Source: Koleobacter methoxysyntrophicus
GTDB taxonomy: Bacteria > Bacillota > Thermosediminibacteria > Koleobacterales > Koleobacteraceae
Assembly: GCF_017301615.1 (NCBI RefSeq)
Contig: NZ_CP059066.1
Location: 2,468,888 to 2,492,887 of the forward strand
Length of the DNA stretch: 24,000 nt
Direction of reading: 5' to 3'
A program made the position numbers and the translations under genes. Position 1 is the stretch's first letter; each line of letters begins with the position of its first letter. Positions 9,129 through 23,605 of the stretch are shown piece by piece. The notes beneath the pieces were generated by a model. It saw nothing but the letters and a program-made list of their open reading frames with translations, was not told the origin of the DNA and did not search any database.

Positions 9129-10145
9129 TTGATTGTCGTAAAAAAAAGGTTTGTAAAAGCTAATAATTATAAAAAAGGATATGACCTGTTTTTGTCAGAT
9201 ATTTATCCCTACTTACCATCAAATTTAAGGAACATACTGAGTCAAGTAGAAACCGATATTTATGAGTTCATTGAAGAGATTAGGCTTAGGATAAATAGAC
9301 CCCTTATGATATATGGAAATAATACTGATTTTTTTGTTCAGGATTGCGGTAAGATTACCCACATTTCTGAACAGGGTTACATAGTAACAAAAGATGATAT
9401 ACAAAAAACCCTACATTTGCTTTCGGAAAGTTCGATATATGCTTTAGAGGAAGAATTAAAAAATGGGTTTATAACAATCAAAGGTGGCCATAGAGTAGGT
9501 CTCGCCGGCAAGATAATTATGGAAAATGGTGTAATAAAAACTATAAAAGATATAAGCAGTTTGAATATTCGTATAAGTAAAGAGGTCATAGGTGCAGCAG
9601 ATAAAATAATTAAATATATAATTGATCCGCTTTCCAACAGGGTTTTCAATACATTGATAATTTCGCCTCCTAAATGCGGGAAAACTACCATATTAAGGGA
9701 TATAGTCAGGCAGCTGAGTAACGGCATACCGAATAAAGGCTTTAAAGGAATAAATGTAGGGGTAGTTGACGAACGTTCGGAAATTGCCAGTTTTTATGAT
9801 GGGGTCTATAAAAAAGATTTAGGGGTAAGGACTGATGTGTTGGATTCCTGTCCGAAAGCTCAAGGTATTATTATGTTAATAAGGTCTATGTCTCCTCAAG
9901 TTATAGCTACAGATGAAATTGGGAAAAAACAGGATGCTGCAGCAATAGAAGAAGCAGTTAATGCTGGAGTCAGTATAATTACTACCGTTCACGGAGCGAA
10001 TATTGATGATATTAGAAATAGACCGACAATGAGGAAAATTTTAAATGAAAGGTTCTTTGATGTATTGATTTTTTTGAGCAACCGTTTAGGAGTTGGTACA
10101 ATTGAAAAGGTTCTTGATGGAAAAACCTTCAAGCCCATACATTAA
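9129..10145 (+). CDS. spoIIIAA: stage III sporulation protein AA (AAA+/secretion-ATPase-like)
   Basis: 338-aa ORF with Walker A in IISPPKCGKTTILRDI and a Walker B-like VIATDEIG. It is the first gene of an eight-gene spoIIIA-ordered cluster. GGAGGG lies 8 nt upstream of the TTG start. Confidence 0.9.
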   Translation: MIVVKKRFVKANNYKKGYDLFLSDIYPYLPSNLRNILSQVETDIYEFIEEIRLRINRPLMIYGNNTDFFVQDCGKITHISEQGYIVTKDDIQKTLHLLSESSIYALEEELKNGFITIKGGHRVGLAGKIIMENGVIKTIKDISSLNIRISKEVIGAADKIIKYIIDPLSNRVFNTLIISPPKCGKTTILRDIVRQLSNGIPNKGFKGINVGVVDERSEIASFYDGVYKKDLGVRTDVLDSCPKAQGIIMLIRSMSPQVIATDEIGKKQDAAAIEEAVNAGVSIITTVHGANIDDIRNRPTMRKILNERFFDVLIFLSNRLGVGTIEKVLDGKTFKPIH

Positions 10146-10176
10146 AATACCGATAAGGTGGAATGGAGGTATTTAA

Positions 10177-10698
10177 ATGTTAATTAAAATTGCCGGTGTT
10201 TTGATTATTATTATTTCTTCTTCATATATTGGTTTTTTAATAGCAGGTTTTTACAGGGATCGACCTAAACAATTGAGAAACTTACAAGCTGCATTGCATA
10301 TGCTGGAAACTGAAATTATATATTTTTCAACACCTTTACCTGATGCCATGAGAAAAATATCCTGTAAATGCGATCCTAGGGTCTCTGATGTATTTAAAAC
10401 CGTTGCTGAAATGTTGGATAAGCGACAGGGCTATACAGCAGGAGAGTGTTGGGAAATGGCCATAAACAGTTTCTATCAGAATTCATCTATTAATATAAAT
10501 GATAAAGAAATATTAATTTCTTTTGCTAAATATTTAGGCAGCACAGATAAAGATAACCAGCTAAAAAATCTTAAACTTACTAGAGAACTATTGCATAAAC
10601 AGGAAGAAGAGGCGGAAGAAGTCAGGAATAGAAACGAAAAAATATGGAGATATATAGGGGTTTTGACAGGGGTTATGATTGTATTGCTGATATTCTGA
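10177..10698 (+). CDS. spoIIIAB: stage III sporulation protein AB
   Basis: 173 aa with N- and C-terminal TM helices. The conserved RPKQLRNLQAALHMLETEIIY segment parallels B. subtilis SpoIIIAB, and operon position agrees. Confidence 0.88.
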   Translation: MLIKIAGVLIIIISSSYIGFLIAGFYRDRPKQLRNLQAALHMLETEIIYFSTPLPDAMRKISCKCDPRVSDVFKTVAEMLDKRQGYTAGECWEMAINSFYQNSSININDKEILISFAKYLGSTDKDNQLKNLKLTRELLHKQEEEAEEVRNRNEKIWRYIGVLTGVMIVLLIF

Positions 10699-10718
10699 TA
10701 AGAAAGGAGTTATGAAAA

Positions 10719-10916
10719 ATGGATGTTGATCTGATTTTCAAAATAGCAGGGCTGGGAATACTTATTTCTATTTTAAACAAAGTATTAATTCAATCGGGAA
10801 GGGAAGAACAGGCTCAGATGACGACACTGGTTGGTGTTATAATTGTATTATTAATCGTTATTCAATTGATTGGCAAGCTATTTGACAGCGTTAAGACTAT
10901 GTTCCATCTGTATTAA
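10719..10916 (+). CDS. spoIIIAC: stage III sporulation protein AC
   Basis: 65-aa two-TM protein. MDVDLIFKIAGLGILISIL resembles the SpoIIIAC N-terminus, and operon position agrees. Confidence 0.88.
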   Translation: MDVDLIFKIAGLGILISILNKVLIQSGREEQAQMTTLVGVIIVLLIVIQLIGKLFDSVKTMFHLY

Positions 10917-10932
10917 TCAGGGGTGTTTATAA

Positions 10933-11319
10933 ATGGAAGTTTTAAATATAGTAGGAATGGGGCTTATAGCGGCTATCCTAGTAGTTGTTTTAAAAGAAGA
11001 AAGACCTGAAATAGCGATCCAGGTTTCTATTTTAGTCGGTATTATAATCTTTATATTGATGGTTAACAAGATATCATTGGTTATATCAATCCTGGAAGAC
11101 CTGTCACGAAAGGTTAATATAGATTTCATATATTTTTCTACTATACTTAAGATTATAGGTATCGCATATATAACGGAATTTGGAGCCCAAATTTGCAGGG
11201 ATGCTGGTTCTGGAGCAATTGCTTCAAAGATAGAATTTGCAGGGAAAATTTTAATTATTTTACTATCAGTACCTATAATTGTGGCACTGCTCGAGATGGT
11301 ACTTAAGATAATGCCGTAA
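10933..11319 (+). CDS. spoIIIAD: stage III sporulation protein AD
   Basis: 128-aa membrane protein with the highly conserved ILKIIGIAYITEFGAQICRDAGSGAIASKIEFAGKILI block. Confidence 0.9.
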   Translation: MEVLNIVGMGLIAAILVVVLKEERPEIAIQVSILVGIIIFILMVNKISLVISILEDLSRKVNIDFIYFSTILKIIGIAYITEFGAQICRDAGSGAIASKIEFAGKILIILLSVPIIVALLEMVLKIMP

Positions 11320-11337
11320 CGGAGTTGAGACATAATT

Positions 11338-12513
11338 ATGGGAAAAATTAAACCCTTTAAAATAAGTATTCTTATGATTAGTATAATTTTTTTGCTGTCA
11401 GGTATGACATTTGCCCAGGAGGAAATTGATATAATCGACGAACAGATTTCAAAACTTGATTTTAGTCAGGTTGAGGAATTATTAAATTCAATGAACAGGG
11501 ATGTAGAGGAATTTATACCTGAATTTACCATAGATAATTTAATAAACCTTATCAAAAATAAGGATATAAATTATTCTTTCAAATCGTTTTTCGCAGGGGT
11601 ATTTAATTATTTTTTTAAAGAAGTTATAGCAAATTCCCAGTTATTAGCAAAATTAATTATACTCGCCGTATTGCTGGCAATTTTGCAAAATCTCCAGTCT
11701 GCTTTTGAAAAAGATAATATCAGTAAACTGGCATATAGTGTATGCTATTTGATATTGATAGGGATTATAGTCAACAGTTTTACGATTGCCCTCTCCTTAG
11801 GAAAACAAGCGATTAACGATATGGTTAATTTCCTGCATGCAATTCTTCCCCTTTTATTGAGTTTGCTTGTTGCCCTTGGTGGTTTTGCCTCTGCTGCTGT
11901 TTTTCATCCCATTATTCTCATGACTATAAGTGGAGTGGGCACTTTAATAAGGGACATACTTTTGCCTTTAATTTTTTTATCATCAATCCTTACAATTGTT
12001 GACAATATAACAGATGCCTACAAGGTTTCACGAATGTCCGGTTTGTTAAGGGAAATAAGTATAGGTTTGTTAGGTTTTTTCCTTAGCATTTTTTTAGGTG
12101 TAATGATAATCCAGGGAGCAGGTGCTGCTGTAGCCGATGGTGTATCCGTTAGGACAGCTAAGTTTGCTACGAAAAACTTTTTCCCTATAGTCGGCGGAAT
12201 ATTTGCGGATGCCATCGACATGGTAATAGGATGTTCATTGTTACTAAAAAACTCTATAGGCATTTTTGGAGCAATTGTTGTTTTCCTCATTTGTATCTTC
12301 CCTGTGATAAAGATTATTTCAATTATGGTGATATATAAAATTGCCAGCGCCCTAGTTGAACCCCTGGGAGAGAATAAAATTGTAAAATGTTTAAATGATG
12401 TGGGGAATTCCCTTACCATGATTTTTGTCTGTGTATCAGCTGTAGCTATGATGCTGTTTATAGCAATAACAATAATAATTGGCGCCGGTAATGTTATGGT
12501 GATGATGCGTTAA
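11338..12513 (+). CDS. spoIIIAE: stage III sporulation protein AE
   Basis: 391-aa polytopic membrane protein with a signal-like N-terminus. Size and operon position fit SpoIIIAE. Confidence 0.88.
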   Translation: MGKIKPFKISILMISIIFLLSGMTFAQEEIDIIDEQISKLDFSQVEELLNSMNRDVEEFIPEFTIDNLINLIKNKDINYSFKSFFAGVFNYFFKEVIANSQLLAKLIILAVLLAILQNLQSAFEKDNISKLAYSVCYLILIGIIVNSFTIALSLGKQAINDMVNFLHAILPLLLSLLVALGGFASAAVFHPIILMTISGVGTLIRDILLPLIFLSSILTIVDNITDAYKVSRMSGLLREISIGLLGFFLSIFLGVMIIQGAGAAVADGVSVRTAKFATKNFFPIVGGIFADAIDMVIGCSLLLKNSIGIFGAIVVFLICIFPVIKIISIMVIYKIASALVEPLGENKIVKCLNDVGNSLTMIFVCVSAVAMMLFIAITIIIGAGNVMVMMR

Positions 12514-12528
12514 GGAAGGAGTGGTATA

Positions 12529-13185
12529 TTGATCGAATTCCTGAAAAACTGGATTAGGAGTATAGTCTTAATTATATTTTTTGCTTTCCTTTTAGAAGTA
12601 TTTATGCCCAGAAGCGATTTAAGCAGATATATAAAAGTTATATTAGGTTTTTTGGTAATTATAACTGTTTTAAGCCCGGTTTTAAGCCTATTTAATTTAG
12701 ATTTTGATTTCAACCAGAGGATCTGGGCAATAAAAAATGATATAGAAATACAAGAAATAACTGAAAGAGGGAAGAGTATTCAAAAGGATTATAATGAACA
12801 GGCTATTGAACAGTATAAAAAAGGCATAGTGGAACAGATTAAAAGTCACATTCTCGATGTTGTTGGGTTAGATGAATCTAAAATTGAGATAAATGTAGAA
12901 ATATGTGAAGATATTCATGATAAAGATTTTGGTAAACTGCAGGGGGTAGAAGTTATAATAGATTATTCAAAAAAAGAAGAAATGGGTGTAAAGAAAATTA
13001 AACCTGTAGAAATATCTATAGGATTACCTAATGAAACAAAGAAAGCATCGTCTGACCGAAATGAGGTAGATAATGATAGTATATTAATCAATAACATAAA
13101 AAAGGCCCTGTCTCAGTTTTATAACATTTCCCATGAAAGGGTTTATATAGAAGTGAGAAAGGATGAAGATTATGGAGCTTTTTAA
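12529..13185 (+). CDS. spoIIIAF: stage III sporulation protein AF
   Basis: 218 aa. The N-terminus (FLKNWIRSIVLIIFFAFLLEVFMP...YIKVILGFLVI) parallels B. subtilis SpoIIIAF. AAGGAG precedes the TTG start. Confidence 0.85.
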   Translation: MIEFLKNWIRSIVLIIFFAFLLEVFMPRSDLSRYIKVILGFLVIITVLSPVLSLFNLDFDFNQRIWAIKNDIEIQEITERGKSIQKDYNEQAIEQYKKGIVEQIKSHILDVVGLDESKIEINVEICEDIHDKDFGKLQGVEVIIDYSKKEEMGVKKIKPVEISIGLPNETKKASSDRNEVDNDSILINNIKKALSQFYNISHERVYIEVRKDEDYGAF

Positions 13186-13780
13186 GAATATAAACACTTT
13201 TTTGAAGAAAATCAGCAATTCTCAAGGCAAGAATATTAATACCCTTTTCATTTATCTGTTAATAGGGGTTATAATTCTGACAGCCGGAAGTATTCTTTTT
13301 GATAGCCCCGGTTCTGAAAGAAAAGCAGAAAATACAGTTACAAATTTAGAAAAGCGACCTGTGAAGGAAGAATCCAGCATAGAATATAAACATATCCTTG
13401 AAAAACAACTAAAGGATATCTTATCCTGTATTAATGGTGTTGGAAGGGTAGAAATAATGATAACTTTAGATACCGATGAAGAGATTCAGCCTGCATACAA
13501 TATTTCAGAAACCAGAAAAAATACTGAAGAAAAAGATACACAGGGTGGAATAAGGAATATAGCTGAGTTTAATAGTGACAAGAAAGTAGTTATTGTCAGG
13601 GAACAGGGCGGGAATGAAAAACCGGTGGTAGTAAAGGAAATAAAACCCCGTGTAAAAGGAGTAATTGTCGTAGCTGAAGGAGCAGAAAATTCTGCTATCG
13701 AAGAAAAACTAACTAAAGCCGTTAAAACGGTGTTAAATATTCCTGTTTATAAGATTAAAGTCTTACCGATGAAAAAATAA
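13172..13780 (+). CDS. spoIIIAG: stage III sporulation protein AG
   Basis: N-terminal TM helix and a C-terminal ring-building domain with VKGVIVVAEGAEN. The ATG at 13172 has better SD spacing (aaagga at 13157-13162) than the track start at 13163. It overlaps the end of spoIIIAF. Confidence 0.85.
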   Translation: MELFKNINTFLKKISNSQGKNINTLFIYLLIGVIILTAGSILFDSPGSERKAENTVTNLEKRPVKEESSIEYKHILEKQLKDILSCINGVGRVEIMITLDTDEEIQPAYNISETRKNTEEKDTQGGIRNIAEFNSDKKVVIVREQGGNEKPVVVKEIKPRVKGVIVVAEGAENSAIEEKLTKAVKTVLNIPVYKIKVLPMKK

Positions 13781-13809
13781 TAATAATATGATATGGGGAG
13801 GGGTATATA

Positions 13810-14334
13810 TTGATTATAAAAAAAAGGACATTAGTAATTTTTGTGTTAATCATTATTTTGGGGATAACCATACATCTTTATTTAAATAAAGAATCCCTTG
13901 ATTTTGAAGAAATAACCCAGACGGAAAAAGCGGTCTTAAATCAAGTAGAGTTTCCTCAGGATGATTTAGAAGATTTCGAGAAAGGCCAGAATTTTTTTAT
14001 AGATTATAAATTAGAAAGGGATAGGTTAAGAAGCCAGGAAATAGATATGTTGAGGGAAATAATTTATAATCCAAATTCTGATAAGGAGATTCGAGAACGA
14101 GCACAGGAAGACCTGCTAAAAATCATACGGCAGATGGAGAAAGAACTAATCCTGGAAAACCTTATTAAAGGGAAAGGGTTTGAAGATGCGGTTATCTTCT
14201 TTGGTGATGATTCAGTTAATGTAATAGTTAAAACTCAGGGGTTGGACGACAAACAGGTTGCACAAATCTGTGATATTGTTTCAAAAGGGACTGGTTTATC
14301 TCTAGATAAAATAACAATTATTGAAAGAAAATAA
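13810..14334 (+). CDS. spoIIIAH: stage III sporulation protein AH
   Basis: 174 aa with an N-terminal TM helix. FFIDYKLERDRLRSQEIDMLREII is typical of the SpoIIIAH/YscJ-like fold region. It is the last gene of the operon, with a GGGGAGGGG SD and a TTG start. Confidence 0.85.
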   Translation: MIIKKRTLVIFVLIIILGITIHLYLNKESLDFEEITQTEKAVLNQVEFPQDDLEDFEKGQNFFIDYKLERDRLRSQEIDMLREIIYNPNSDKEIRERAQEDLLKIIRQMEKELILENLIKGKGFEDAVIFFGDDSVNVIVKTQGLDDKQVAQICDIVSKGTGLSLDKITIIERK

Positions 14335-14346
14335 ACGGCTTATTAA

Positions 14347-14375
14347 TTGTAATAGAACCCTTCATCTGGTATAAT
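14347..14375 (+). promoter_or_regulatory. sigma-A-type promoter with extended -10 upstream of the asp23 module
   Basis: TTGTAA (14347-14352), a 17-nt spacer, then TGgTATAAT (14367-14375), located in the 61-nt gap after spoIIIAH. Confidence 0.6.
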
Positions 14376-14410
14376 AAATTTTTAGAGGAGAATATGTGGA
14401 GGTGATAGTT

Positions 14411-14797
14411 ATGGAGCTAACCAACAATGCTAACGATAATAAAGGTACGATAAAAATTGCCGATGAGGTTGTAAGTATAATAGCCGGTATTGCTGCAACG
14501 GAAGTCAAAGGAGTTGCCGGGATGAGCGGAGGAGTAGCCGGCGGTATAGTGGAAATACTTGGAAAAAAGAACCTATCTAAAGGTGTTAAGGTTGAAGTTG
14601 GGGAAAAAGAAGCTGCCGTAGATTTATATGTTATTGTTGAATATGGTGTAAGAATCCCGGAAGTAGCATGGAACATTCAGGAAAATGTCAAACAGGCAAT
14701 TGAAAATATGACAGGTTTGGAAGTAGTAGAGGTTAATATTCATGTTCAAGGTGTTAATTTTCAGCATGAGAATAAAGAAGATGGAAGGGTAAGATAA
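14411..14797 (+). CDS. Asp23/Gls24 family envelope stress response protein
   Basis: GTIKIADEVVSIIAGIAATEVKGVAGM and a DLYVIVEYGVRIPEVAWNIQENVKQAIENMTGLEV core typical of Asp23/DUF322. GGAGGTGA (14398-14405) precedes the ATG at 14411. The GTG at 14396 (track start) is also possible. Confidence 0.88.
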   Translation: MELTNNANDNKGTIKIADEVVSIIAGIAATEVKGVAGMSGGVAGGIVEILGKKNLSKGVKVEVGEKEAAVDLYVIVEYGVRIPEVAWNIQENVKQAIENMTGLEVVEVNIHVQGVNFQHENKEDGRVR

Positions 14798-14807
14798 TAT
14801 ATAATAA

Positions 14808-14840
14808 AATAACCCCCTGATTTCTCAGGGGGTTATTTTG
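14808..14840 (+). terminator. strong hairpin / probable intrinsic terminator or attenuator after asp23
   Basis: A 13-bp perfect stem, aataaccccctga (14808-14820) with tcagggggttatt (14825-14837), and loop tttc. The T tract is short and lies partly within the stem. Confidence 0.65.
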
Positions 14841-14865
14841 AATCTTATAAGAAAGGGGTTAGAAG

Positions 14866-15399
14866 ATGACTTTATTTGATAGGTTTATGCTGACGATATA
14901 TACCTTCTGCCTTACTATTTTTTCTATTTTTGCCATATTAATATCACTTAGGGTTTTGCCTGTGGATTTTTGCTGGACAACCTTTAAAGGGATTTATGGA
15001 AGATGGGAAACAGGTCTTATAGGGTTAGTATTTTTAATCGTAAGTTTAAAATTTTTGCTCTCTGGTATCAAAGGAAACAAATATAATCAAATACTGATTT
15101 CTACAACTTCTCTTGGGGAGATTAGTATTTCGTTAGTTGCCATAGAAAACACAGTAATTAAAACCGTAAAAGAAATAATAGGGGTTAGGGATGTAGAGGT
15201 AAAGATTAGAAATTATTCAGATGGCATTCGGTTAATTCTTAAATTAAACATAATACCTGATGTAAATATCCCTGAAATTACAACAGAAATACAGAAAAAT
15301 GTTAAAGAATATGTGGAAACAACAACGGGCATTAAAATTAAAGAAATAAAGGTTCTGATCGGGAATATAGCTACAAACATTAAATCAAGGGTTAGTTAG
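14866..15399 (+). CDS. amaP: alkaline shock response membrane anchor protein AmaP-like
   Basis: 177 aa with two N-terminal TM helices, then an Asp23-like soluble region (ISISLVAIENTVIKTVKEI...VEVKI). Adjacency to Asp23 and DUF2273 genes matches the known asp23 module. Confidence 0.75.
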   Translation: MTLFDRFMLTIYTFCLTIFSIFAILISLRVLPVDFCWTTFKGIYGRWETGLIGLVFLIVSLKFLLSGIKGNKYNQILISTTSLGEISISLVAIENTVIKTVKEIIGVRDVEVKIRNYSDGIRLILKLNIIPDVNIPEITTEIQKNVKEYVETTTGIKIKEIKVLIGNIATNIKSRVS

Positions 15400-15422
15400 G
15401 TTGATATTGTGAGGTGTTTAAA

Positions 15423-15647
15423 ATGTGGAAGGATATTGTAAGAGATGTATTAAAAGAACATAAGGGTAAAATAATTGGGGCCTTTTTAGGTCTGGTAATA
15501 AGTTTAATGATATTGTTCCTTGGATTTTTTAGGGCTGTTTTTATAATAATGTGTGTCTTAATAGGATACTTTATTGGTAACCGTATAGATAAAAAGGAAG
15601 ATATAAAAGAATTGCTGGAAAAATTTTTACCACCAGGTTCAGATTAA
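15423..15647 (+). CDS. DUF2273-like small integral membrane protein
   Basis: About 74 aa with two TM helices (GKIIGAFLGLVISLMILFLGFFRAVFIIMCVLIGYFIG). This is the third member of the Asp23/AmaP module. The ATG at 15423 has GAGG 8 nt upstream; the track start is a GTG at 15414. Confidence 0.7.
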   Translation: MWKDIVRDVLKEHKGKIIGAFLGLVISLMILFLGFFRAVFIIMCVLIGYFIGNRIDKKEDIKELLEKFLPPGSD

Positions 15648-15679: not shown

Positions 15680-16123
15680 ATGAACAGAAGGATGGCCCGG
15701 GAAAACGTGTTAAAAATTCTATTTGAGATTGATGTGGGGGGAAAGCCCGCAGAAGATGCTCTGGCGGATTTTTTTGAGAATATAGGTATAAACTTAAATA
15801 ATGTTTCAGATAGAAACTTGATTTACATTAAAGAAACCGTAGAAGGAACGGTAAAAAATAGAAAAGAAATAGACTCCATTATTGAAGAATTTACTATTGA
15901 TTGGAAGCTCGATCGTTTAGCTAATGTAGACAAAAATGTTTTAAGGTTTTCGATATTTGAAATCTTATTTAAGGATGATATCCCTATCCAGGCGACGATT
16001 AATGAAGCTGTTGAATTAACAAAAAAGTATAACACAGAAGAAGCAGGAAAGTTTGTTAATGGGATACTGGGAGAAATAGTGAAACAGCTTGATAAAATCA
16101 ATAAAAGATTAAAAAGACCCTGA
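15680..16123 (+). CDS. nusB: transcription antitermination factor NusB
   Basis: 147 aa. RRMARENVLKILFEIDV, LDRLANVDKNVLRFSIFEIL and INEAVELTKKY....GKFVNGILG are canonical NusB segments. Strong SD aaggagg. Confidence 0.93.
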   Translation: MNRRMARENVLKILFEIDVGGKPAEDALADFFENIGINLNNVSDRNLIYIKETVEGTVKNRKEIDSIIEEFTIDWKLDRLANVDKNVLRFSIFEILFKDDIPIQATINEAVELTKKYNTEEAGKFVNGILGEIVKQLDKINKRLKRP

Positions 16124-16180: not shown

Positions 16181-17404
16181 ATGGGCATGACTGTATTAAC
16201 AGTTGGAGAAGTAACCAAATATATAAAACAAACCTTTGTATCTGACCCCATTTTGAATAATGTATATGTTAAGGGAGAAGTATCTAATTATATTAAACAT
16301 ACTTCGGGTCACATGTATTTTACGCTAAAAGACAAAACTAGTAAATTGAAATGTGTTATGTTTAGCAATAGGAACAGGCTGATTAATTTTAGTATTAGCA
16401 ACGGAATGAAAGTTATAGTAGGTGGGTATATTTCTGTTTATGAGCGTGATGGAATATATCAACTATATGCCGAAGAAATACAGCCGGATGGCATAGGGTC
16501 CCTTTATCTGGCTTTTGAAGAATTAAAACAGAAGTTAGAAAAAGAGGGTTTATTTAAGCCGGAGCATAAAAAGAAAATCCCAGCTTTACCGAGAAATATT
16601 GGATTGGTCACTTCTACCACAGGAGCAGCAGTAAGGGATTTTTTAACGGTTGTTAAAAGGCGTTTTCCTGGTGTAAATATATACCTGGTACCGGTACTGG
16701 TTCAAGGAGTTCAAGCTTCAGAACAGATATCTAATGCAATAGATACATTAAACAGATACAGCAACATAGACTTAATTGTATTGACGAGGGGTGGAGGTTC
16801 CATTGAAGAGCTCTGGGCCTTCAATGAGGAAAGGGTAGCTAGAAGCATATTCAGCTCCAAAATCCCTATTGTATCTGCGGTAGGTCATGAAAGGGACTTT
16901 ACGATAGCCGATTTCGTTGCAGATTTAAGGGCACCTACGCCATCAGCTGCGGGGGAACTGGTAGTCCCTGTTAAACGGGAATTAGAAGTAAAAATTAATA
17001 CTTTGTTAAGGCAACTAAATTTCCAAATTGGCAGGAAAATCATTTCAAATAAAGAAAAGTTGAGTTATTTAAAAAAGAGACTGTATTCAAGGCCTGAAGA
17101 TTTTATTTATCAAAAACAGCAGGAAATCGATAACATTACAAAAGACCTTTTTAGAAATCTCAAGAGTTTATTGGAAAGAAAGAACAGCTTATTTATGAGA
17201 TTGGTAGAAAAAATGGAAGCCTTAAGCCCGTTAAAGGTATTATCCAGAGGGTATTCTATTACGAGAAAATATAACGATAAAACAATTATTAAAGATATAA
17301 AAGCCTTAAAAAAAGGTGAGATTTTAGAAACTTTATTATATAAAGGCCAAATTTTGAGTCAGATTATCAAATTAGAGGAAGGGAGAACCGAGTATGGAAA
17401 CTGA
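16181..17404 (+). CDS. xseA: exodeoxyribonuclease VII large subunit
   Basis: 407 aa with an N-terminal OB fold (VSNYIKHTSGHMYFTLKD), a catalytic core (GLVTSTTGAAVRDF, RGGGSIEELWAFNEE, GHERDFTIADFVAD.RAPTPSAA) and a C-terminal coiled coil. Confidence 0.93.
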   Translation: MGMTVLTVGEVTKYIKQTFVSDPILNNVYVKGEVSNYIKHTSGHMYFTLKDKTSKLKCVMFSNRNRLINFSISNGMKVIVGGYISVYERDGIYQLYAEEIQPDGIGSLYLAFEELKQKLEKEGLFKPEHKKKIPALPRNIGLVTSTTGAAVRDFLTVVKRRFPGVNIYLVPVLVQGVQASEQISNAIDTLNRYSNIDLIVLTRGGGSIEELWAFNEERVARSIFSSKIPIVSAVGHERDFTIADFVADLRAPTPSAAGELVVPVKRELEVKINTLLRQLNFQIGRKIISNKEKLSYLKKRLYSRPEDFIYQKQQEIDNITKDLFRNLKSLLERKNSLFMRLVEKMEALSPLKVLSRGYSITRKYNDKTIIKDIKALKKGEILETLLYKGQILSQIIKLEEGRTEYGN

Positions 17405-17633
17405 TAATTTAACCTTTGAAACAGCTTTAAAAAATTTGGAACAGGTGGTAGATTTATTAGAAAAAGGAGATTTACCGCTGGAGGAGGCATTGAAGGAATT
17501 TGAAAAAGGGGTAAAGCTTGCCCGCTTTTGTACCAGAAAACTAAATGAAGTAGAAGGGAAGGTTAATTTGCTTATTGAAAAAGACGGAGGAGAATTCATT
17601 TTAGAAGAATTTAAAATTTCCGAGGGGGAATAA
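17394..17633 (+). CDS. xseB: exodeoxyribonuclease VII small subunit
   Basis: 79 aa. LTFETALKNLEQVVDLLEKGDLPLEEALKEFEKGVKLARFC is the canonical XseB helix-hairpin. It overlaps xseA by 11 nt. Confidence 0.93.
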   Translation: METDNLTFETALKNLEQVVDLLEKGDLPLEEALKEFEKGVKLARFCTRKLNEVEGKVNLLIEKDGGEFILEEFKISEGE

Positions 17634-17638
17634 GATCG

Positions 17639-18526
17639 ATGGATTTAAAACAATATTTCCGAGAAAGAAGGGATATCATAGAAAAAGCTCTAGACAAGTT
17701 TCTTCCCCCTGAAAGCGAATACCCGGAGATTATCCATAAAGCTATAAGGTATAGTGTTTTTGCAGGAGGGAAACGGCTTAGACCCATTCTCGTAATGGCT
17801 GGGGCAGAGGCTGTAGGGGGGTCTATACATGATGTTCTCCCCATAGCCTGTGGAATCGAGTTTATTCACACATATTCCCTAATACATGATGACCTTCCGG
17901 CCCTTGATAACGATGATTTTAGAAGGGGAAAACCAACCAATCATAAGGTTTTCGGGGAAGATATTGCTATTCTTGCTGGAGATGCTTTATTAACCTTAGC
18001 TTTTGAAGTTATTTCTGGACACTATAACAGGAGTAAAGGATTTGATAAAGTTTTAAGGATAATAAATGAGATTGCCAGAGCTTGTGGAACCATGGGGATG
18101 ATAGGAGGACAGGTGATAGATCTAGAATCCGAGGGGAGAGAAATTGATTTTAAAACCCTTGATTATATCCATAATCATAAGACAGGAGCTTTAATTACCA
18201 CTTCCATAAGGGTAGGAGCTATTTATTCCGACGCAACAGAAAACCAACTCGAAATTCTTACCGGATATGCCGAAAAAATAGGCCTTTTATATCAAATTGT
18301 TGATGACCTGCTGGATATAAAAGGAGACATCAAAAAAACAGGCAAATCTGTGGGGAGTGATATTAAGAACAATAAATCCACTTATCCTGCTATTTACGGA
18401 TTGGAAAAAGCCCAGCAGATTGCCTGTATTTTAGCCGGGGAGGCAAAGGATTATGCTAGTAATTTAGGGGAAAAGGGGAAATTTTTTATCCATTTTGCCG
18501 ACTATTTGCTTACCAGGGAATCATAA
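17639..18526 (+). CDS. ispA: (2E,6E)-farnesyl diphosphate synthase / polyprenyl synthetase
   Basis: 295 aa with the first and second aspartate-rich motifs (LIHDDLPALDNDDFRRG and QIVDDLLD), the GGKRLRP motif, and its position after xseB. Confidence 0.92.
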   Translation: MDLKQYFRERRDIIEKALDKFLPPESEYPEIIHKAIRYSVFAGGKRLRPILVMAGAEAVGGSIHDVLPIACGIEFIHTYSLIHDDLPALDNDDFRRGKPTNHKVFGEDIAILAGDALLTLAFEVISGHYNRSKGFDKVLRIINEIARACGTMGMIGGQVIDLESEGREIDFKTLDYIHNHKTGALITTSIRVGAIYSDATENQLEILTGYAEKIGLLYQIVDDLLDIKGDIKKTGKSVGSDIKNNKSTYPAIYGLEKAQQIACILAGEAKDYASNLGEKGKFFIHFADYLLTRES

Positions 18527-18542
18527 ACAGGGAGGTTGATTA

Positions 18543-18989
18543 GTGTATTCCTTTGTTTTGCTTTTTCAAAACCCTATATTAATAACGGCAGTTGCTGCAT
18601 GGTTTTCAGCTCAGACCCTGAAAATTATAGTTGTAATGGTATTAACTAAAAAGATAGATTTTAAGAGGTTTATAAGTGCTGGTGGTATGCCGAGTTCCCA
18701 TTCTGCACTGGTAACGTCAATGGCAACAGCTATCGGAAAGATTGAAGGTTGGTCTTCACCTATTACTGCCTTAGCTGTGGTTGTAGCTTTAATAGTAATG
18801 TATGATGCTGCCGGAGTTAGACGCTCAGCTGGTAAACAGGCCGAGGTTATAAATAAAATTATAGAGGAATTTCTTCGGCCCCAGAGGCTGATTAAGGAAG
18901 AGAGATTAAAAGAATTAATTGGCCATACCCCAACAGAAGTTTTTGCTGGGGGTATACTTGGAATTATAATAGCCAATATACTTATATGA
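18543..18989 (+). CDS. divergent PAP2 family (DUF212) membrane protein, putative lipid/polyprenyl phosphate phosphatase
   Basis: 148-aa polytopic protein with GGMPSSHSA, AAGVRRSAG and LIGHTPTEVFAGG motifs typical of the divergent PAP2/DUF212 family. GGGAGG precedes the GTG start. Confidence 0.8.
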   Translation: MYSFVLLFQNPILITAVAAWFSAQTLKIIVVMVLTKKIDFKRFISAGGMPSSHSALVTSMATAIGKIEGWSSPITALAVVVALIVMYDAAGVRRSAGKQAEVINKIIEEFLRPQRLIKEERLKELIGHTPTEVFAGGILGIIIANILI

Positions 18990-18992
18990 AAC

Positions 18993-19020
18993 TTGAATAT
19001 AACGAAAAATATGCTATAAT
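18993..19020 (+). promoter_or_regulatory. sigma-A-type promoter with extended -10 immediately upstream of the large ncRNA
   Basis: TTGAAT (18993-18998), a 16-nt spacer, then TGcTATAAT (19012-19020). The predicted start lies about 12 nt before the 5' strand of the RNA closing helix. Confidence 0.6.
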
Positions 19021-19039
19021 GATAGACGGATTTATTAAT

Positions 19040-19632
19040 GGTAGATGGCGCAGTATTCTAGTCAGTATTATATTTCCTGAAGGCGGGGCTAAAAATCCGT
19101 CATAGGGCACATCGATGAAGTTCCTGGTATTGGCTGCCAACGCCCAGTTGGGGGTCAGTGCTGGGAGTTAAGGAAGATGGGGCGATCTACAAAGGCATGT
19201 AGGCGTTGACCCCGCTTCCGTGGAGACTCAGACAGGTTTAATTATACAGGAACCTTCTGAGGAAACCTACATTCCGGTATTGCCAGAAGATGCTGGGTGT
19301 AGCGTAGCCTGCCTTGAGTGATTTGGGTGGGATAAAGGTTTTAAACCTCAAGATTCAAGGGCCCTTGAAGTAGAGGCTATGCCTTTTGAAACCCAAATTG
19401 CAAAAGGGGCTAGGGAAATATTAATACTGCCGAGGAAAACTCCTAGACTGTTCTTATGAAGAGACATATCGGGGATTACAGTGCGGTCTGAGTGGCAATC
19501 TAGCCCTGTGCTCGGAAACGGTACAGAAGCAGTCATAAAGGGAAACCGCCTGACTGGCGACGGTCGGGTGACTGCTTGGGAAATCCTGCTAGACCTAAGC
19601 CGCAAAATTTACCTGATATGTTGCCATCTACC
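19040..19632 (+). ncRNA. ole: OLE (ornate, large, extremophilic) RNA candidate
   Basis: The 678-nt gap between CDSs has no + strand ORF in the track. There is a local G+C rise. A perfect 10-bp closing helix joins ggtagatggc (19040-19049) and gccatctacc (19623-19632). Several perfect internal helices are present, for example 19527-19535 with 19569-19577 and 19305-19310 with 19374-19379. The genomic context xseAB-ispA-[RNA]-4TM protein-dxs-tlyA-nadK matches published OLE loci. Exact ends are uncertain. Confidence 0.85.
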
Positions 19633-19667
19633 TCAATAACGACCATTTATTTTATGGGGGATTTTTT

Positions 19668-20243
19668 TTGAATCGAAGTAAAAGAAAATATAAATATAAA
19701 AAGGCATGGATCTATAAGATATTTATATTGACTTTTATTATAGCCTTTTTAATAAGCTTTTCTTCAGAAAATCTGATTAAAGCCCTAAATTTAATATTGG
19801 CTTTTTTTATTTTAATAATTATAATCTTAATAGGTATTATATTTGATATCGTAGGTGTTGCTGTTACCGCTGCTAAAGAACCGCCCTTTCATGCTATGTC
19901 GGCAGATAAAGTAAAAGGAGCAAAGGAAGCGGTTAAATTGATAAGAAATGCGGATATAGTATCAAATTTTTGTAATGATGTTATTGGTGATATATCAGGT
20001 ACTATAAGTGGCGCTGCTGGTGCTGCAATTGTCTTGAAAATATTTAACTATTACAGTATTATTGATAAGGCTATGTTTAGTATAATAGTTACCAGTTTAA
20101 TTGCTACATTGACCGTCGGAGGAAAAGCAATAGGGAAAGGTATCGCTATTTCTAGATGTCAAGAAATAGTTTTAAAAGTGGGTTTATTACTTTATTACCT
20201 TAATACCAAGTTTAGAATCCAAATTTTGAAAAATAATAAATAG
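19668..20243 (+). CDS. oapA: OLE-associated protein A (OapA)-like four-TM membrane protein
   Basis: 191 aa (about 21 kDa) with a basic N-terminus (NRSKRKYKYKK) and four predicted TM helices. A DxxxD motif (D104-VIG-D108) follows NADIVSNFCN. It starts 35 nt after the RNA with no intervening terminator. GGGGGA lies 6 nt upstream of the TTG start. Confidence 0.8.
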   Translation: MNRSKRKYKYKKAWIYKIFILTFIIAFLISFSSENLIKALNLILAFFILIIIILIGIIFDIVGVAVTAAKEPPFHAMSADKVKGAKEAVKLIRNADIVSNFCNDVIGDISGTISGAAGAAIVLKIFNYYSIIDKAMFSIIVTSLIATLTVGGKAIGKGIAISRCQEIVLKVGLLLYYLNTKFRIQILKNNK

Positions 20244-20258
20244 AAAGGTTTAAGTAAA

Positions 20259-22172
20259 ATGGTTGGAAATCTACATTTGTTAAAAAGGATAAAAAGTCCA
20301 GAAGATTTAAAAAAAATGAGCTATAACGACTTGGAGATTCTAGCCGAAGAAATAAGAAGATATATCCTTGAGGTAGTTTCTAAAAATGGCGGTCATCTGG
20401 CTTCAAATTTAGGAGTTGTCGAATTAACAATAGCTTTGCATAAGGTATTTTCAAGTCCAAGGGATAAGATCATATGGGATGTCGGCCATCAATCTTATGT
20501 ACATAAACTGCTAACGGGCAGATTTGATGAATTTTCAAAGCTGCGGCAATATAAAGGCATTAGCGGTTTTCCTAAAAGGAAGGAAAGTATTCACGATATA
20601 TTCGAAACGGGTCACAGCAGCACTTCCATCTCTGCTGCTGTAGGTTTTGCCCATATAAGAGATTTAACCGAAGAAAAATATGAGGTAATAGCTGTCATCG
20701 GAGATGGGGCATTAACAGGTGGAATGGCCTTTGAAGCATTGAATTATGCAGGACACGTAAAAAAGGATTTTATAGTAATTTTAAATGATAATGAAATGTC
20801 TATTTCACCCAATATAGGTGGACTATCATCGTATCTAACACGTCTAAGGGCTGACCCTGCTTATTATAAGCTGAAATCAGATGTGGAATATATTTTGAAT
20901 AATATTCCTGCTATTGGTAAAAGTGTAGCTAAAACCATTGAAAGAGTAAAGGGCAGTTTGAAATATTTCCTTGTTCCAGGAATGCTATTTGAGGAATTAG
21001 GGTTTAAATATTTCGGGCCCCTAGATGGTCATAATATTAAACAGGTGGTTTCAACACTGGAGATGGCCAAAAAAACTAAAGGGCCTAAAATTATACATGT
21101 AATAACAAAAAAGGGAAAGGGTTACCGTTTTGCTGAAGAAAATCCCGACTATTTTCACGGAATCGCACCATTTGATATAGATACTGGTAGGGTTATAAAA
21201 CCAAAAAAGGGACCTTCATATTCTGAAGTTTTTGGTGATTTTTTATGCACGTTAGCTGAAAGAAATGATAAAATAGTGGCAATAACGGCTGCAATGCCTG
21301 ATGGAACAGGATTAAGGAAGTTTTCACAAAGATTTCCTAATAGATTTTTTGATGTTGGCATAGCAGAACAGCATGCTGTTACTATGGCGGCCGCAATGGC
21401 AATGGAAGGTTTTATACCTGTTGTTGCTATATATTCTACATTTCTGCAAAGGGCATATGACCAAATAATTCATGATGTATGCCTGCAAAATTTGCCTGTA
21501 ATTTTTGCAGTAGACAGGGCGGGGATAGTAGGAGAAGATGGAGAAACCCATCATGGTGTTTTTGATCTTTCTTTTTTGAGGCATATTCCGAATATGGTCG
21601 TCATGTCACCCAAAGATGAAAGCGAATTAAAGAGTATGCTTATTACGGCAGTAAAATCATCTAGCCCAGTTGCTATCAGGTATCCTAGGGGTAGCGGTAT
21701 AGGAGTTGATAAAAATCAAGACATTAATCCAATTGAAATCGGACGGGGAGAGATTTTAAGAAAAGGAAAGGATATCAACATATTATCAATAGGTTCTATG
21801 GTATATCCTTCCCTTGAAGCCGCCAAAATGTTAACGGATCACAGAATAGATGCCTGTGTTGTCAACTGTAGGTTTTTAAAGCCAATAGATGGGGAGCTAT
21901 TAAAAAGACTTGCCGAAATTTCCCCCTACTTTATAACAGTAGAAGAAAACGCATTACAGGGTGGTTTTGGAAGTGCTGTTCTTGAATTTTTTGAACGAGA
22001 AAATTTATTCGATTTAAAAATAAAAAGACTGGGTATCCCTGATAAATTTCTTTTACAAGGTCCAAGAGAGCTCCTCTTAAAAGAAATTGATTTAACCCCT
22101 GAAGGTATTGTTAATGATGTTCTAACGATTCTAAGGAGTGAAAACTTTGGCCGGGAAAAAACAAAGACTTGA
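20259..22172 (+). CDS. dxs: 1-deoxy-D-xylulose-5-phosphate synthase
   Basis: 637 aa. GGHLASNLGVVELTIALH, DVGHQSY.HK, the ThDP motif GDGALTGGMAFEALN, and DVGIAEQHAVT are canonical DXS segments. Confidence 0.96.
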   Translation: MVGNLHLLKRIKSPEDLKKMSYNDLEILAEEIRRYILEVVSKNGGHLASNLGVVELTIALHKVFSSPRDKIIWDVGHQSYVHKLLTGRFDEFSKLRQYKGISGFPKRKESIHDIFETGHSSTSISAAVGFAHIRDLTEEKYEVIAVIGDGALTGGMAFEALNYAGHVKKDFIVILNDNEMSISPNIGGLSSYLTRLRADPAYYKLKSDVEYILNNIPAIGKSVAKTIERVKGSLKYFLVPGMLFEELGFKYFGPLDGHNIKQVVSTLEMAKKTKGPKIIHVITKKGKGYRFAEENPDYFHGIAPFDIDTGRVIKPKKGPSYSEVFGDFLCTLAERNDKIVAITAAMPDGTGLRKFSQRFPNRFFDVGIAEQHAVTMAAAMAMEGFIPVVAIYSTFLQRAYDQIIHDVCLQNLPVIFAVDRAGIVGEDGETHHGVFDLSFLRHIPNMVVMSPKDESELKSMLITAVKSSSPVAIRYPRGSGIGVDKNQDINPIEIGRGEILRKGKDINILSIGSMVYPSLEAAKMLTDHRIDACVVNCRFLKPIDGELLKRLAEISPYFITVEENALQGGFGSAVLEFFERENLFDLKIKRLGIPDKFLLQGPRELLLKEIDLTPEGIVNDVLTILRSENFGREKTKT

Positions 22173-22971
22173 TAGTTTGCTTGTTGAAAAGGGTTTTTTT
22201 GATAGCAGGGAACGGGCAAAAAGGGCTATAATGGCCGGTCTTGTGTTAGTAGATGAAAAATTGATCGATAAACCGGGTGCAAGAATTGATGATAGAAGCA
22301 TTATCATTGTAAAGGGTGATCCGATTCCTTATGTAAGTAGAGGAGGTCTTAAGCTAGAAAAAGCTATCAGGGTGTTCAATATCGATGTAAAAGACAGTAT
22401 TGCCATTGATGTGGGCGCATCAACAGGAGGGTTTACACACTGTCTTTTAGAATTTGGAGCAAAAAAAGTATATGCTATAGATGTCGGATATGGGCAATTA
22501 GCTTGGAAATTACGTAAAGACCCTAGAGTGATTCCTATGGAAAGGAAAAACATCAGATATCTTACCCTTGATGACTTAGATGAACGGTGTGATATAGCTA
22601 CTATCGATGTTTCTTTCATTTCATTGAAAAAGGTTATTCCATCCGTCTTAAACCTCCTTGTCGAAACGGGTGAAATAATAGCCCTTATTAAACCCCAATT
22701 TGAAACTCAAAAGGAAAAAGTAGGGAAGAAAGGTGTTGTTAAATCTGCTGTTGTACATAAGGAGGTCATTTATTCAATTATAGAATTTATTGAAGAACAG
22801 GGCCTTAGTTTTAATAACTTGACCTATTCACCTATAAAAGGACCGGAAGGAAATATTGAATTTTTAATTCATATTTCCAAAATCCATCATTCACCTGATT
22901 CATTAAATACATTTGACAAACTTTCTTTAATTTCTACAGTTGTAAATAATGCTCATAAAGAGCTTTTATAA
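22138..22971 (+). CDS. tlyA: TlyA family rRNA (cytidine-2'-O)-methyltransferase
   Basis: S4 domain (RLDSLLVEKGFFDSRERAKRAIMAGLVLVD), YVSRGG.KLE, and the SAM motif AIDVGASTGGFT. The start is ambiguous: the GTG at 22138 overlaps the SD AAGGAG, while the TTG at 22147 has 8-nt spacing. It overlaps the end of dxs. Confidence 0.88.
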   Translation: MKTLAGKKQRLDSLLVEKGFFDSRERAKRAIMAGLVLVDEKLIDKPGARIDDRSIIIVKGDPIPYVSRGGLKLEKAIRVFNIDVKDSIAIDVGASTGGFTHCLLEFGAKKVYAIDVGYGQLAWKLRKDPRVIPMERKNIRYLTLDDLDERCDIATIDVSFISLKKVIPSVLNLLVETGEIIALIKPQFETQKEKVGKKGVVKSAVVHKEVIYSIIEFIEEQGLSFNNLTYSPIKGPEGNIEFLIHISKIHHSPDSLNTFDKLSLISTVVNNAHKELL

Positions 22972-22978
22972 ATTCTAT

Positions 22979-23007
22979 TAGTATGCTTTAAAGCATGCTA
23001 TTTTTTT
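22979..23007 (+). terminator. rho-independent terminator after tlyA
   Basis: A 9-bp stem (tagtatgct with agcatgcta, one G-U pair), tetraloop ttaa, then T7 (23001-23007). Confidence 0.72.
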
Positions 23008-23083
23008 AAAGGAAAATTCCTTTTTTTGTTGAATATAGTCTTAGCAGAAAAAAATTGAAAAAAGAATTGCATAAAGGATAAGG

Positions 23084-23605
23084 ATGTTTTATATGAAAGC
23101 CATCGATTTTCTCATTATAGGATGTATTGTCGGAGCCATTTTTATAACCCTTATGAAAAAATGGTTTAATAGACGTATCATAATTAAAAGAATAGAAAAG
23201 GCAAAACGTGGAGAAAAAGATGCTATAAAGTTGCTAAAAGCTCAAGGCTTTAAAATACTCAATGTGCAGGAGAGGAAACCATTAACAACCTATATAAACG
23301 GAAAACCTTATACTAACTACGTACAGGTAGATATAATAGCTGAAAAAAGGAAAAAGAAATATATAGCTGAAGTAAAAACTGGAACAAGGGCTGTTCAGAC
23401 AACTAATCCGAATACCCGGAGGCAACTCCTTGAATATTATCTTGTCTATAAACCTGAAGGGATACTTTTATTGGATATGTCAAATAAAAAAATAAATGAA
23501 GTTCATTTTGATATTATAAAACCCTTCAATAAGGCAACAATAGAAATGATAAAAATTCTCATAGTTTTTATAGCTGGACTAATTGCCGGGGCTATTATAG
23601 GTTAA
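23084..23605 (+). CDS. hypothetical membrane-anchored protein with a PD-(D/E)xK (YraN/Hjc-like) nuclease-fold core
   Basis: 173 aa with an N-terminal TM (AIDFLIIGCIVGAIFITLM) and a C-terminal TM (ILIVFIAGLIAGAIIG). The core, GEKDAIKLLKAQGFKIL ... VDIIAEKRKKKYIAEVKTG, reproduces the E...D-x12-E-x-K arrangement of YraN/Hjc-type endonucleases. The ATG at 23093 is an alternative start. Confidence 0.7.
   Translation: MFYMKAIDFLIIGCIVGAIFITLMKKWFNRRIIIKRIEKAKRGEKDAIKLLKAQGFKILNVQERKPLTTYINGKPYTNYVQVDIIAEKRKKKYIAEVKTGTRAVQTTNPNTRRQLLEYYLVYKPEGILLLDMSNKKINEVHFDIIKPFNKATIEMIKILIVFIAGLIAGAIIG

Follow-up and report, generated by a model that had tools for sequence, protein, structure and literature searches.

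The question raised by this locus is what occupies the gap at 18990–19667 in a 24,000-nucleotide (nt) stretch of the Koleobacter methoxysyntrophicus genome (contig NZ_CP059066.1, positions 2,468,888–2,492,887 of the forward strand; the whole stretch is referred to below as the window). The plus strand of the gap contains only short open reading frames (ORFs) of at most 52 amino acids (aa). A first reading of the letters alone (the original prediction) had proposed that the gap holds an OLE RNA, and this interpretation was supported: by its sequence, 19029–19643 on the plus strand qualifies as a full-length-type OLE RNA gene (ole). OLE RNAs are about 600 nt in length, with roughly a quarter of their positions nearly invariant, and typically belong to anaerobic or extremophilic Bacillota; the class was reportedly first described by Puerta-Fernandez and coworkers in 2006. 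Taken as a whole, the best explanation is that this is the ole gene of a spore-forming Clostridia-type member of the Bacillota, giving an OLE RNA of about 600 nt with the transcription and mechanism proposed below, and we regard this account as almost certainly correct.

Family match and sequence properties

The window was scanned against Rfam 15 at gathering thresholds, the covariance-model check that the original prediction had proposed; the accession that it had given, RF01071, was the right one. The OLE model was matched on the plus strand at 19029–19643 over its full length (model positions 1–616 of 616) with a score of 546.5 bits (threshold 50; E = 6e-158). This was the only Rfam match in the 24 kb. 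Seventeen other OLE RNAs passed through the same scan scored 495–559 bits, so the window copy is a typical one. It keeps 238 of the 249 well-conserved (upper-case) positions of the Rfam consensus, and among the 11 differences the changes at 19049/19623 (U–A to C–G) and 19269/19300 (G–C to A–U) are compensatory. Standard pairs are formed at 150 of the 159 consensus base pairs. The core of the RNA, from P1 to P1, spans 593 nt (19040–19632).

The rise in G+C content noted in the original prediction was reproduced. Its hand counts (34/60 at 19141–19200 and 25/60 at 19381–19440) were correct, and the OLE span has a G+C content of 48% (295/615), whereas the window averages 35% and the flanking genes have 29–38%. 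The minimum free energy (MFE) of the region is −249.2 kcal/mol, compared with −189.6 ± 6.5 kcal/mol for shuffled sequences (z = −9.2), and a perfect 10-nt complement between the 5' and 3' ends occurred in two of 2000 shuffled sequences.

For comparison, at least 120 OLE loci were assembled from one-genome-per-species contigs using a pattern of two invariant OLE motifs. The closest OLE RNA from another species among the loci listed has 73% identity, and the nearest OLE loci among the matches listed are from Clostridia. Window positions 16668–23243 are 100% identical to GenBank assembly GCA_030157005.1 (contig JASGLK010000008.1), and the OLE sequence is unchanged across four independent assemblies. 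There is no counter-evidence to the OLE identity; the window copy is an ordinary member of an already known class and its sequence was already public.

Comparative test of the fold

Alignment A1, comprising 83 full-length OLE RNAs and the window copy (84 sequences), was made with MAFFT, which is not structure-aware. The fold was tested by explicit pair counting using the Rfam structure together with the terminal helix of the original prediction; as a control, the 3' partners were slid by 1–3 columns. Pairing was found in 83% of cells, compared with 41–45% in the slid controls, over which the tested structure has a slight advantage because it was projected from the window row. The covariation score was 0.456 against 0.11–0.14 in the controls, and none of 500 shuffles reached the observed values. 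Changes on both sides were seen in 136 of 169 base pairs. The MFE fold recovers P1 to P14 independently. Helix numbers (P) were mapped from the text of the published papers. The elements of the window copy are as follows.

19040–19049, plus strand, P1 5' strand, GGUAGAUGGC, pairs with 19623–19632
19623–19632, plus strand, P1 3' strand, GCCAUCUACC, pairs with 19040–19049
19050–19061, plus strand, probable P2 5' strand in the MFE fold, with GCAG (19050–19053) opposite CUGU (19448–19451) and UCUAG (19057–19061) opposite CUAGA (19443–19447)
19063–19077/19414–19429, plus strand, P3/P3.1, 8 + 7 base pairs (bp) with the 1-nt bulge U19421, encloses P4–P9
19082–19101, plus strand, P4 hairpin with conserved A-rich loop GCUAAAAAU, from Rfam, 98% paired
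19104–19120, plus strand, conserved P4a/J4a-5 segment AGGGCACAUCGAUGAAG, containing an AUCGAU palindrome and one k-turn strand
19121–19167, plus strand, P5/P5.1 hairpin with loop GCCCA, 20 pairs of which one is non-standard
19172–19219, plus strand, P6/P6.1 with loop AAGGCA, helices 82% and 98% paired
19227–19261, plus strand, P7 hairpin, shortened by 9 nt relative to the Rfam consensus, four of 17 aligned pairs non-standard
19267–19302, plus strand, P8 hairpin with a 7-nt loop insertion relative to the Rfam model
19311–19410, plus strand, P9 arm (P9 to P9.3) with terminal hairpin 19353–19370, two helices 98% and 91% paired
19432–19442, plus strand, P10 hairpin, GAGGAAAACUC, 98% paired
19452–19462, plus strand, P11 hairpin, 80% paired
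19463–19622, plus strand, 3' domain with long-range helices 19463–19473/19612–19622, 19482–19486/19600–19604 and 19499–19504/19588–19593
19506–19526, plus strand, P13 hairpin with GAAA tetraloop and single-nucleotide bulge C19511, 92% paired
19527–19534/19570–19577, plus strand, P14, 94% paired, eight of eight pairs covary
19548–19569, plus strand, P14.1 with GCGA tetraloop

The terminal complement that had been taken to close the domain (19040–19049/19623–19632) is P1, named in the literature as the 5'-terminal stem (PMC3413148, PMC12265935). It covaries, with 86% of cells paired and two-sided changes in nine of ten pairs; support is strong for the inner 7 bp, and the outer 3 bp are paired in 55–70%. 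The long helix P3 (about 15 bp, enclosing P4–P9) had been overlooked, so that the original list of helices was incomplete. P3 is paired in 82% of cells (slid controls 39–44%), has a covariation score of 0.56 (controls 0.09–0.16) and is recovered by the MFE fold. Both P1 and P3 are missing from the consensus structure line of Rfam RF01071, yet both covary strongly in the 84 sequences. P2 is beyond the reach of covariation because its nucleotides are invariant in this alignment. Its 5' strand holds a CUAG palindrome; from the text of PMC12265935, the P2 label and a role of CUAG as part of the OapA binding site are put forward as candidates. The P4a/J4a-5 segment matches the consensus and is invariant in the alignment, part of it by construction since it served as a search anchor. 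By analogy with the roles described in PMC12265935 and PMC12286853, its AUCGAU palindrome is a candidate OapA site.

Several of the conserved loops correspond to contacts in published dimer structures obtained by cryo-electron microscopy (cryo-EM). The A-rich loop of P4 is a dimer contact, and there is a kissing contact between the P5.1 loop of one RNA and the P6.1 loop of the other (PMC12286853, PMC12265935); in the window copy the GGC of the P6.1 loop is complementary to the GCC of the P5.1 loop. P5/P5.1 is paired in 96% of cells, with 15 of its 20 pairs changed on both sides. The loop of P9.3 (L9.3) is GGGCCC at 19359–19364, a palindrome and a kissing-loop motif; in the dimer solved by cryo-EM, the two RNAs kiss through the GGCC palindrome of L9.3 (PMC12286853). 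GGCC is present in nearly all of the 84 P9.3 loops, usually as uGGCCa. Two variants were observed in this loop: GGAUCC, which is still palindromic, in Caloramator quimbayensis (L008), and the non-palindromic CGGCAG in a rumen metagenome-assembled genome (L036; alignment A1, around columns 494–499), which would break the published kissing-loop contact.

P8 is paired in 88% of cells (11 of 13 pairs changed on both sides), and P7 in 46% within a stretch that MAFFT aligned poorly; the MFE fold also gives a hairpin for P7. The conserved CCUAGACUGU is flanked by P10 and P11. The helices of the 3' domain are 85–99.6% paired, most of their pairs having changed on both sides. In P13, a GNRA loop and a single bulge, together with P12.2, are the binding determinant of OapB (PMC7936274). 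In all, the sequence determinants discussed here are present in the window copy: the P4 loop, the P5.1 and P6.1 loops, GGGCCC, the 15-bp P3, the P13 GAAA loop with its bulge, the P14.1 GCGA loop, and CUAG with AUCGAU.

The six helix pairs listed in the original prediction are all perfect reverse complements, and half of them withstood the comparison. Besides P1, these are aagcagtca/tgactgctt (19527–19535/19569–19577), a consensus helix mapped to P14 and 94% paired, and the ttcaag-ggcc-cttgaa hairpin, which is the tip of P9 (P9.3). The other three internal helices were rejected: tagcct/aggcta (19305–19310/19374–19379), cttgag/ctcaag (19313–19318/19347–19352) and ccttttg/caaaagg (19382–19388/19401–19407) were paired in 38, 42 and 56% of cells, respectively, across the 84 OLE RNAs against 37–47% for slid controls. 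They show essentially no two-sided changes, one strand of each is conserved as single-stranded or is otherwise paired, and they clash with well-supported consensus helices. They are chance complementarities, and a perfect complement in a single sequence is insufficient to establish a helix.

The irregularities of the window copy could be read as signs of a decaying or reduced OLE relic (similar to variant 1 or variant 2, or a pseudogene) that no longer forms a full ribonucleoprotein. P7 is 9 nt short with four of 17 pairs non-standard, and the outer P9.2/P9.3 stem has four non-standard pairs. However, the model was matched over its full length with a family-typical score, and 238 of 249 conserved positions are kept. 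The OapB site is often absent from variant 1, and P7 and P8 are absent from variant 2 (PMC11332333), whereas the window copy has P7, P8 and the bulged P13 hairpin with its GNRA loop. The downstream oapA ORF is intact, a promoter-like site is present and the OLE sequence is identical in the four assemblies. A relic is thus very improbable.

Transcription and coding potential

A promoter-like site precedes the RNA.

18993–19020, plus strand, promoter-like site of the sigma-70/SigA type: TTGAAT, 16-nt spacer, extended −10 element TGnTATAAT

The site has 10 of 12 matches with the TG present, and the predicted start at about 19026–19029 lies roughly 10 nt before P1. A site with at least nine of 12 matches was found at the equivalent position in 76 of 112 OLE loci, compared with six of 112 in a control window. 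In Halalkalibacterium (Bacillus) halodurans the proximal ole promoter is active and the 5' end of the RNA is at the start of P1 (PMC3413148). From the site in the window, we infer that ole is transcribed from its own sigma-70-type promoter.

No intrinsic terminator was found between OLE and oapA (24 nt, 19643 to 19668) by scanning or folding; among the other loci, a terminator-like hairpin followed OLE in 19 of 81. The spacer at 19633–19667 has a run of eight U residues right before the oapA TTG codon and its GGGGGA site, and it contains no stable hairpin. Read-through into oapA, and hence co-transcription of ole and oapA, is therefore likely.

Under an alternative suggested by this arrangement, the structured region would function chiefly in cis, forming an extended 5' leader of the oapA(-dxs-tlyA) mRNA that serves as a regulatory element or for co-translational targeting, instead of being a free-standing noncoding RNA. 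The missing terminator speaks for it, as do the short distances to the oapA start (24 nt from the Rfam 3' end at 19643 to 19668, 35 nt from the end of P1) and the position of the promoter upstream of OLE, with no separate oapA promoter called in the 19643–19667 gap. Against it, Northern blots of H. halodurans reveal one abundant RNA of OLE size whose half-life is about 3 h, and OLE functions together with OapA with the two provided from a distal locus (PMC3413148); moreover, the RNA binds OapA, OapB, OapC and bS21 as a ribonucleoprotein (PMC12265935). A role mainly in cis is unlikely on this evidence. Co-transcription followed by processing is compatible with an OLE RNA acting in a ribonucleoprotein, and a leader is a refinement of that explanation rather than an alternative to it.

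A protein-coding region was also considered, in the form of either the 85-aa minus-strand ORF at 19348–19605 or a short plus-strand ORF. The 85-aa frame does exist, is the longest ORF in the gap and, as originally stated, is unusual in composition (eight R, 15 S and seven P residues; two K and one E). Automatic gene callers have also placed 39-aa and 62-aa ORFs inside the region in public assemblies. The 85-aa ORF, however, has no match in Pfam or NCBIfam, the homologous minus-strand stretch is stop-free in only ten of 83 other OLE RNAs, and OLE sequences have a median stop-free run of about 85 aa whichever frame is read, so that this length is expected by chance; conservation follows the covariation of paired columns and is not codon-like. 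A coding role of the ORF was accordingly rejected, and we give the coding explanation practically no chance. The frame is a by-product of a G+C-rich RNA in an A+T-rich genome.

In the public gene calls, the 39-aa ORF lies over the OLE 5' end (18986–19105, plus strand) and the 62-aa ORF, from a different assembly, lies on the minus strand inside OLE (L124, 245–433). The RNA gene was evidently not masked in those predictions.

OapA and the gene neighbourhood

The neighbours of ole in the comparison loci were located by tblastn. The genes of the window are as follows.

15680–16123, plus strand, nusB
16181–17404, plus strand, xseA
17394–17633, plus strand, xseB
17639–18526, plus strand, ispA (farnesyl diphosphate synthase, FPP synthase)
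18543–18989, plus strand, DUF212 (divergent PAP2 family) membrane protein gene (PF02681, E = 1e-51)
19029–19643, plus strand, ole (span of the Rfam model)
19668–20243, plus strand, oapA, 191-aa ORF
20259–22172, plus strand, dxs
22138–22971, plus strand, tlyA
23084–23605, plus strand, orf173, 173-aa ORF between tlyA and nadK
from 23618, plus strand, nadK, running off the window

The gene order xseA-xseB-ispA-OLE-oapA-dxs-tlyA-nadK that had been predicted holds, with the DUF212 gene and orf173 as two additional members. The order is of the Bacillota type. Of the listed loci, 80 of 96 have ispA upstream of ole and 67 of 75 have dxs downstream of it.

In 92 of the 94 listed loci with room for it, the gene that immediately follows OLE on its strand encodes a homologue of the 191-aa membrane protein (33–57% identity), and by this sequence evidence the protein is OapA. 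The gene has a TTG start with a GGGGGA ribosome-binding site 6 nt upstream. The N-terminus is very basic (seven K/R in 13 residues), and a crude hydropathy profile has two or three clear hydrophobic segments and some weaker ones. In an alignment of 95 family members, D60, D104, G107, G115, K153 and K157 are invariant. Residues 48–179 give a sub-threshold match to the CNNM/DUF21 domain PF01595 (E = 0.0023; 18.1 bits against a gathering score of 28.4), and PF01595 is matched by 60 of the 95 members, with a best E of 4.3e-9. OapA has been described as a distant relative of the Mg2+ transporter MpfA (PMC11332333, PMC12265935), and the weak CNNM matches agree with this relationship. No solved structure related to OapA was found by sequence in searches with the single sequence or the 95-sequence profile.

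The DUF212 gene stands between ispA and ole in 18 of 96 listed loci, all of them Clostridia-type and none from Bacilli; examples are Caloramator, Alkaliphilus, Thermoclostridium, Caldicoprobacter and Acetivibrio. No literature linking OLE with DUF212, PAP2 or yuiD was found in the searchable papers, which did not cover the survey of Breaker et al. 2023. A lineage-specific role for the DUF212 protein, as partner or client of the OLE/OapA particle at the membrane, is decidedly unlikely; if true, it would tie the particle to the metabolism of polyprenyl phosphate, the lipid carrier of the cell envelope.

Further observations concern the surroundings. A complete spoIIIAA-AH operon is present at 9129–14334 and points to an endospore-forming host within the Bacillota. 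Behind the operon lies an Asp23/YqhY-like gene at 14396–14797, and an Asp23-like 177-aa gene and a gene for a small DUF2273 membrane protein were noted just upstream of nusB (region 9129–15647); yqhY is among the genes commonly associated with ole (PMC12265935). The product of orf173 has an N-terminal hydrophobic segment and a weak match to UPF0102/YraN (PD-(D/E)XK-like; E = 0.001). At this position, weak homologues were also seen in Heliorestis (L072, 40%), Alicyclobacillus herbarius (L010) and Laceyella (L083).

Bacillota-type synteny (xseA-xseB-ispA-ole-oapA-dxs) was also seen in assemblies labelled Fibrobacter, Deltaproteobacteria and Succinivibrio (L043, L057 and L099). These are probably binning or labelling errors; 24 OLE hits outside the Bacillota have been reported to be flanked by Bacillota-like DNA (PMC11332333).

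Proposed mechanism and significance

OLE RNAs are abundant and long-lived and are localized to the membrane by OapA; OapA, OapB and OapC are all needed for function, and H. halodurans cells that have lost the particle become more sensitive to cold, short-chain alcohols, poor carbon sources and excess Mg2+ (PMC3413148, PMC10898510, PMC12265935). The functional literature also includes PMC9723947 and PMC12054373. The RNA-only dimer solved by cryo-EM is held by four contacts, namely the A-rich loops of P4, two P5.1–P6.1 kissing contacts and the L9.3 palindrome (PMC12286853, PMC12265935).

The mechanism proposed for the window copy was derived by homology to the OLE RNAs of H. halodurans, Clostridium acetobutylicum and Clostridium botulinum. 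The RNA would dimerize through the A-rich P4 loop, P5.1/P6.1 loop–loop pairing and the palindromic GGGCCC loop of P9.3. OapA, a presumed stand-alone relative of the membrane domain of the divalent-cation transporters CNNM/MpfA, would bind the RNA and tether it to the membrane, and P3 may cross the bilayer. OapB would be recruited at the GNRA hairpin of P13, and OapC with bS21 at the k-turn region. The resulting ribonucleoprotein would contribute to the tolerance of these same stresses: short-chain alcohols, cold, excess Mg2+ and poor carbon sources.

The account has the following limits. Selection by two motifs biased the comparison set towards canonical OLE RNAs. P7 and the inner P9 helices are only 42–52% paired in the MAFFT alignment, most likely because hairpins of variable length were misaligned. 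Neither oapB nor oapC lies within the 24-kb window; an OLE-positive genome is expected to carry oapB (for a KOW/SBB-fold protein of about 100 aa) and oapC and to lack mpfA (PMC11332333). Finally, the published model in which P3 crosses the bilayer next to OapA (PMC12265935) is itself a hypothesis.

Among bacterial noncoding RNAs that lack an assigned biochemical function, OLE ranks with the largest and most highly conserved, and recent cryo-EM work suggests that it may be a natural membrane-crossing RNA (PMC12265935). A total of 2,822 representatives have been catalogued in GTDB (PMC11332333). The window copy adds one more Clostridia-type sequence for comparative work and opens no new route to the biochemistry of the class beyond these roughly 2,800. 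Its correct annotation keeps gene callers from placing spurious small ORFs inside OLE, as happened in public assemblies of the same sequence.

Comparison with known systems

ROOL, GOLLD and the raiA motif are likewise large, highly structured RNAs of unknown biochemistry, and homo-oligomers have been described for ROOL and GOLLD as well (PMC12286853). They have no relation to OLE in sequence or fold, and none of the three was matched in the window at Rfam gathering thresholds. On the protein side, OapA gives a weak match to the membrane domain of the MpfA/CorB/CNNM (DUF21) proteins, and the CBS and CorC domains that MpfA carries are absent from it.

The locus of H. halodurans has the same proximal promoter before P1, the adjoining downstream oapA and a P13 with a GNRA loop and bulge (PMC3413148, PMC7936274). 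It differs in that its P13 loop is GUGA, whereas that of the window copy is GAAA, and the window has the DUF212 gene before ole. The four contact motifs of the C. acetobutylicum and C. botulinum dimers (PMC12286853; Wang et al. 2025, as given in PMC12265935) are shared at the level of sequence. L9.3 of the window copy is a 6-nt palindrome, and the RNA is predicted to dimerize in the same way.

The closest correspondence is with the full-length OLE type (Fernando and Breaker 2024, PMC11332333), with which the window copy has in common its length, the conserved nucleotides, the helices P1 to P14.1, oapA, the surrounding gene order, a predicted proximal promoter and, probably, a host within the Bacillota. 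Compared with the usual OLE RNA, its P7 is shorter, its P8 loop carries a 7-nt insertion and its P9.3 loop is GGGCCC instead of uGGCCa; these differences are ordinary lineage-level variation within the class.

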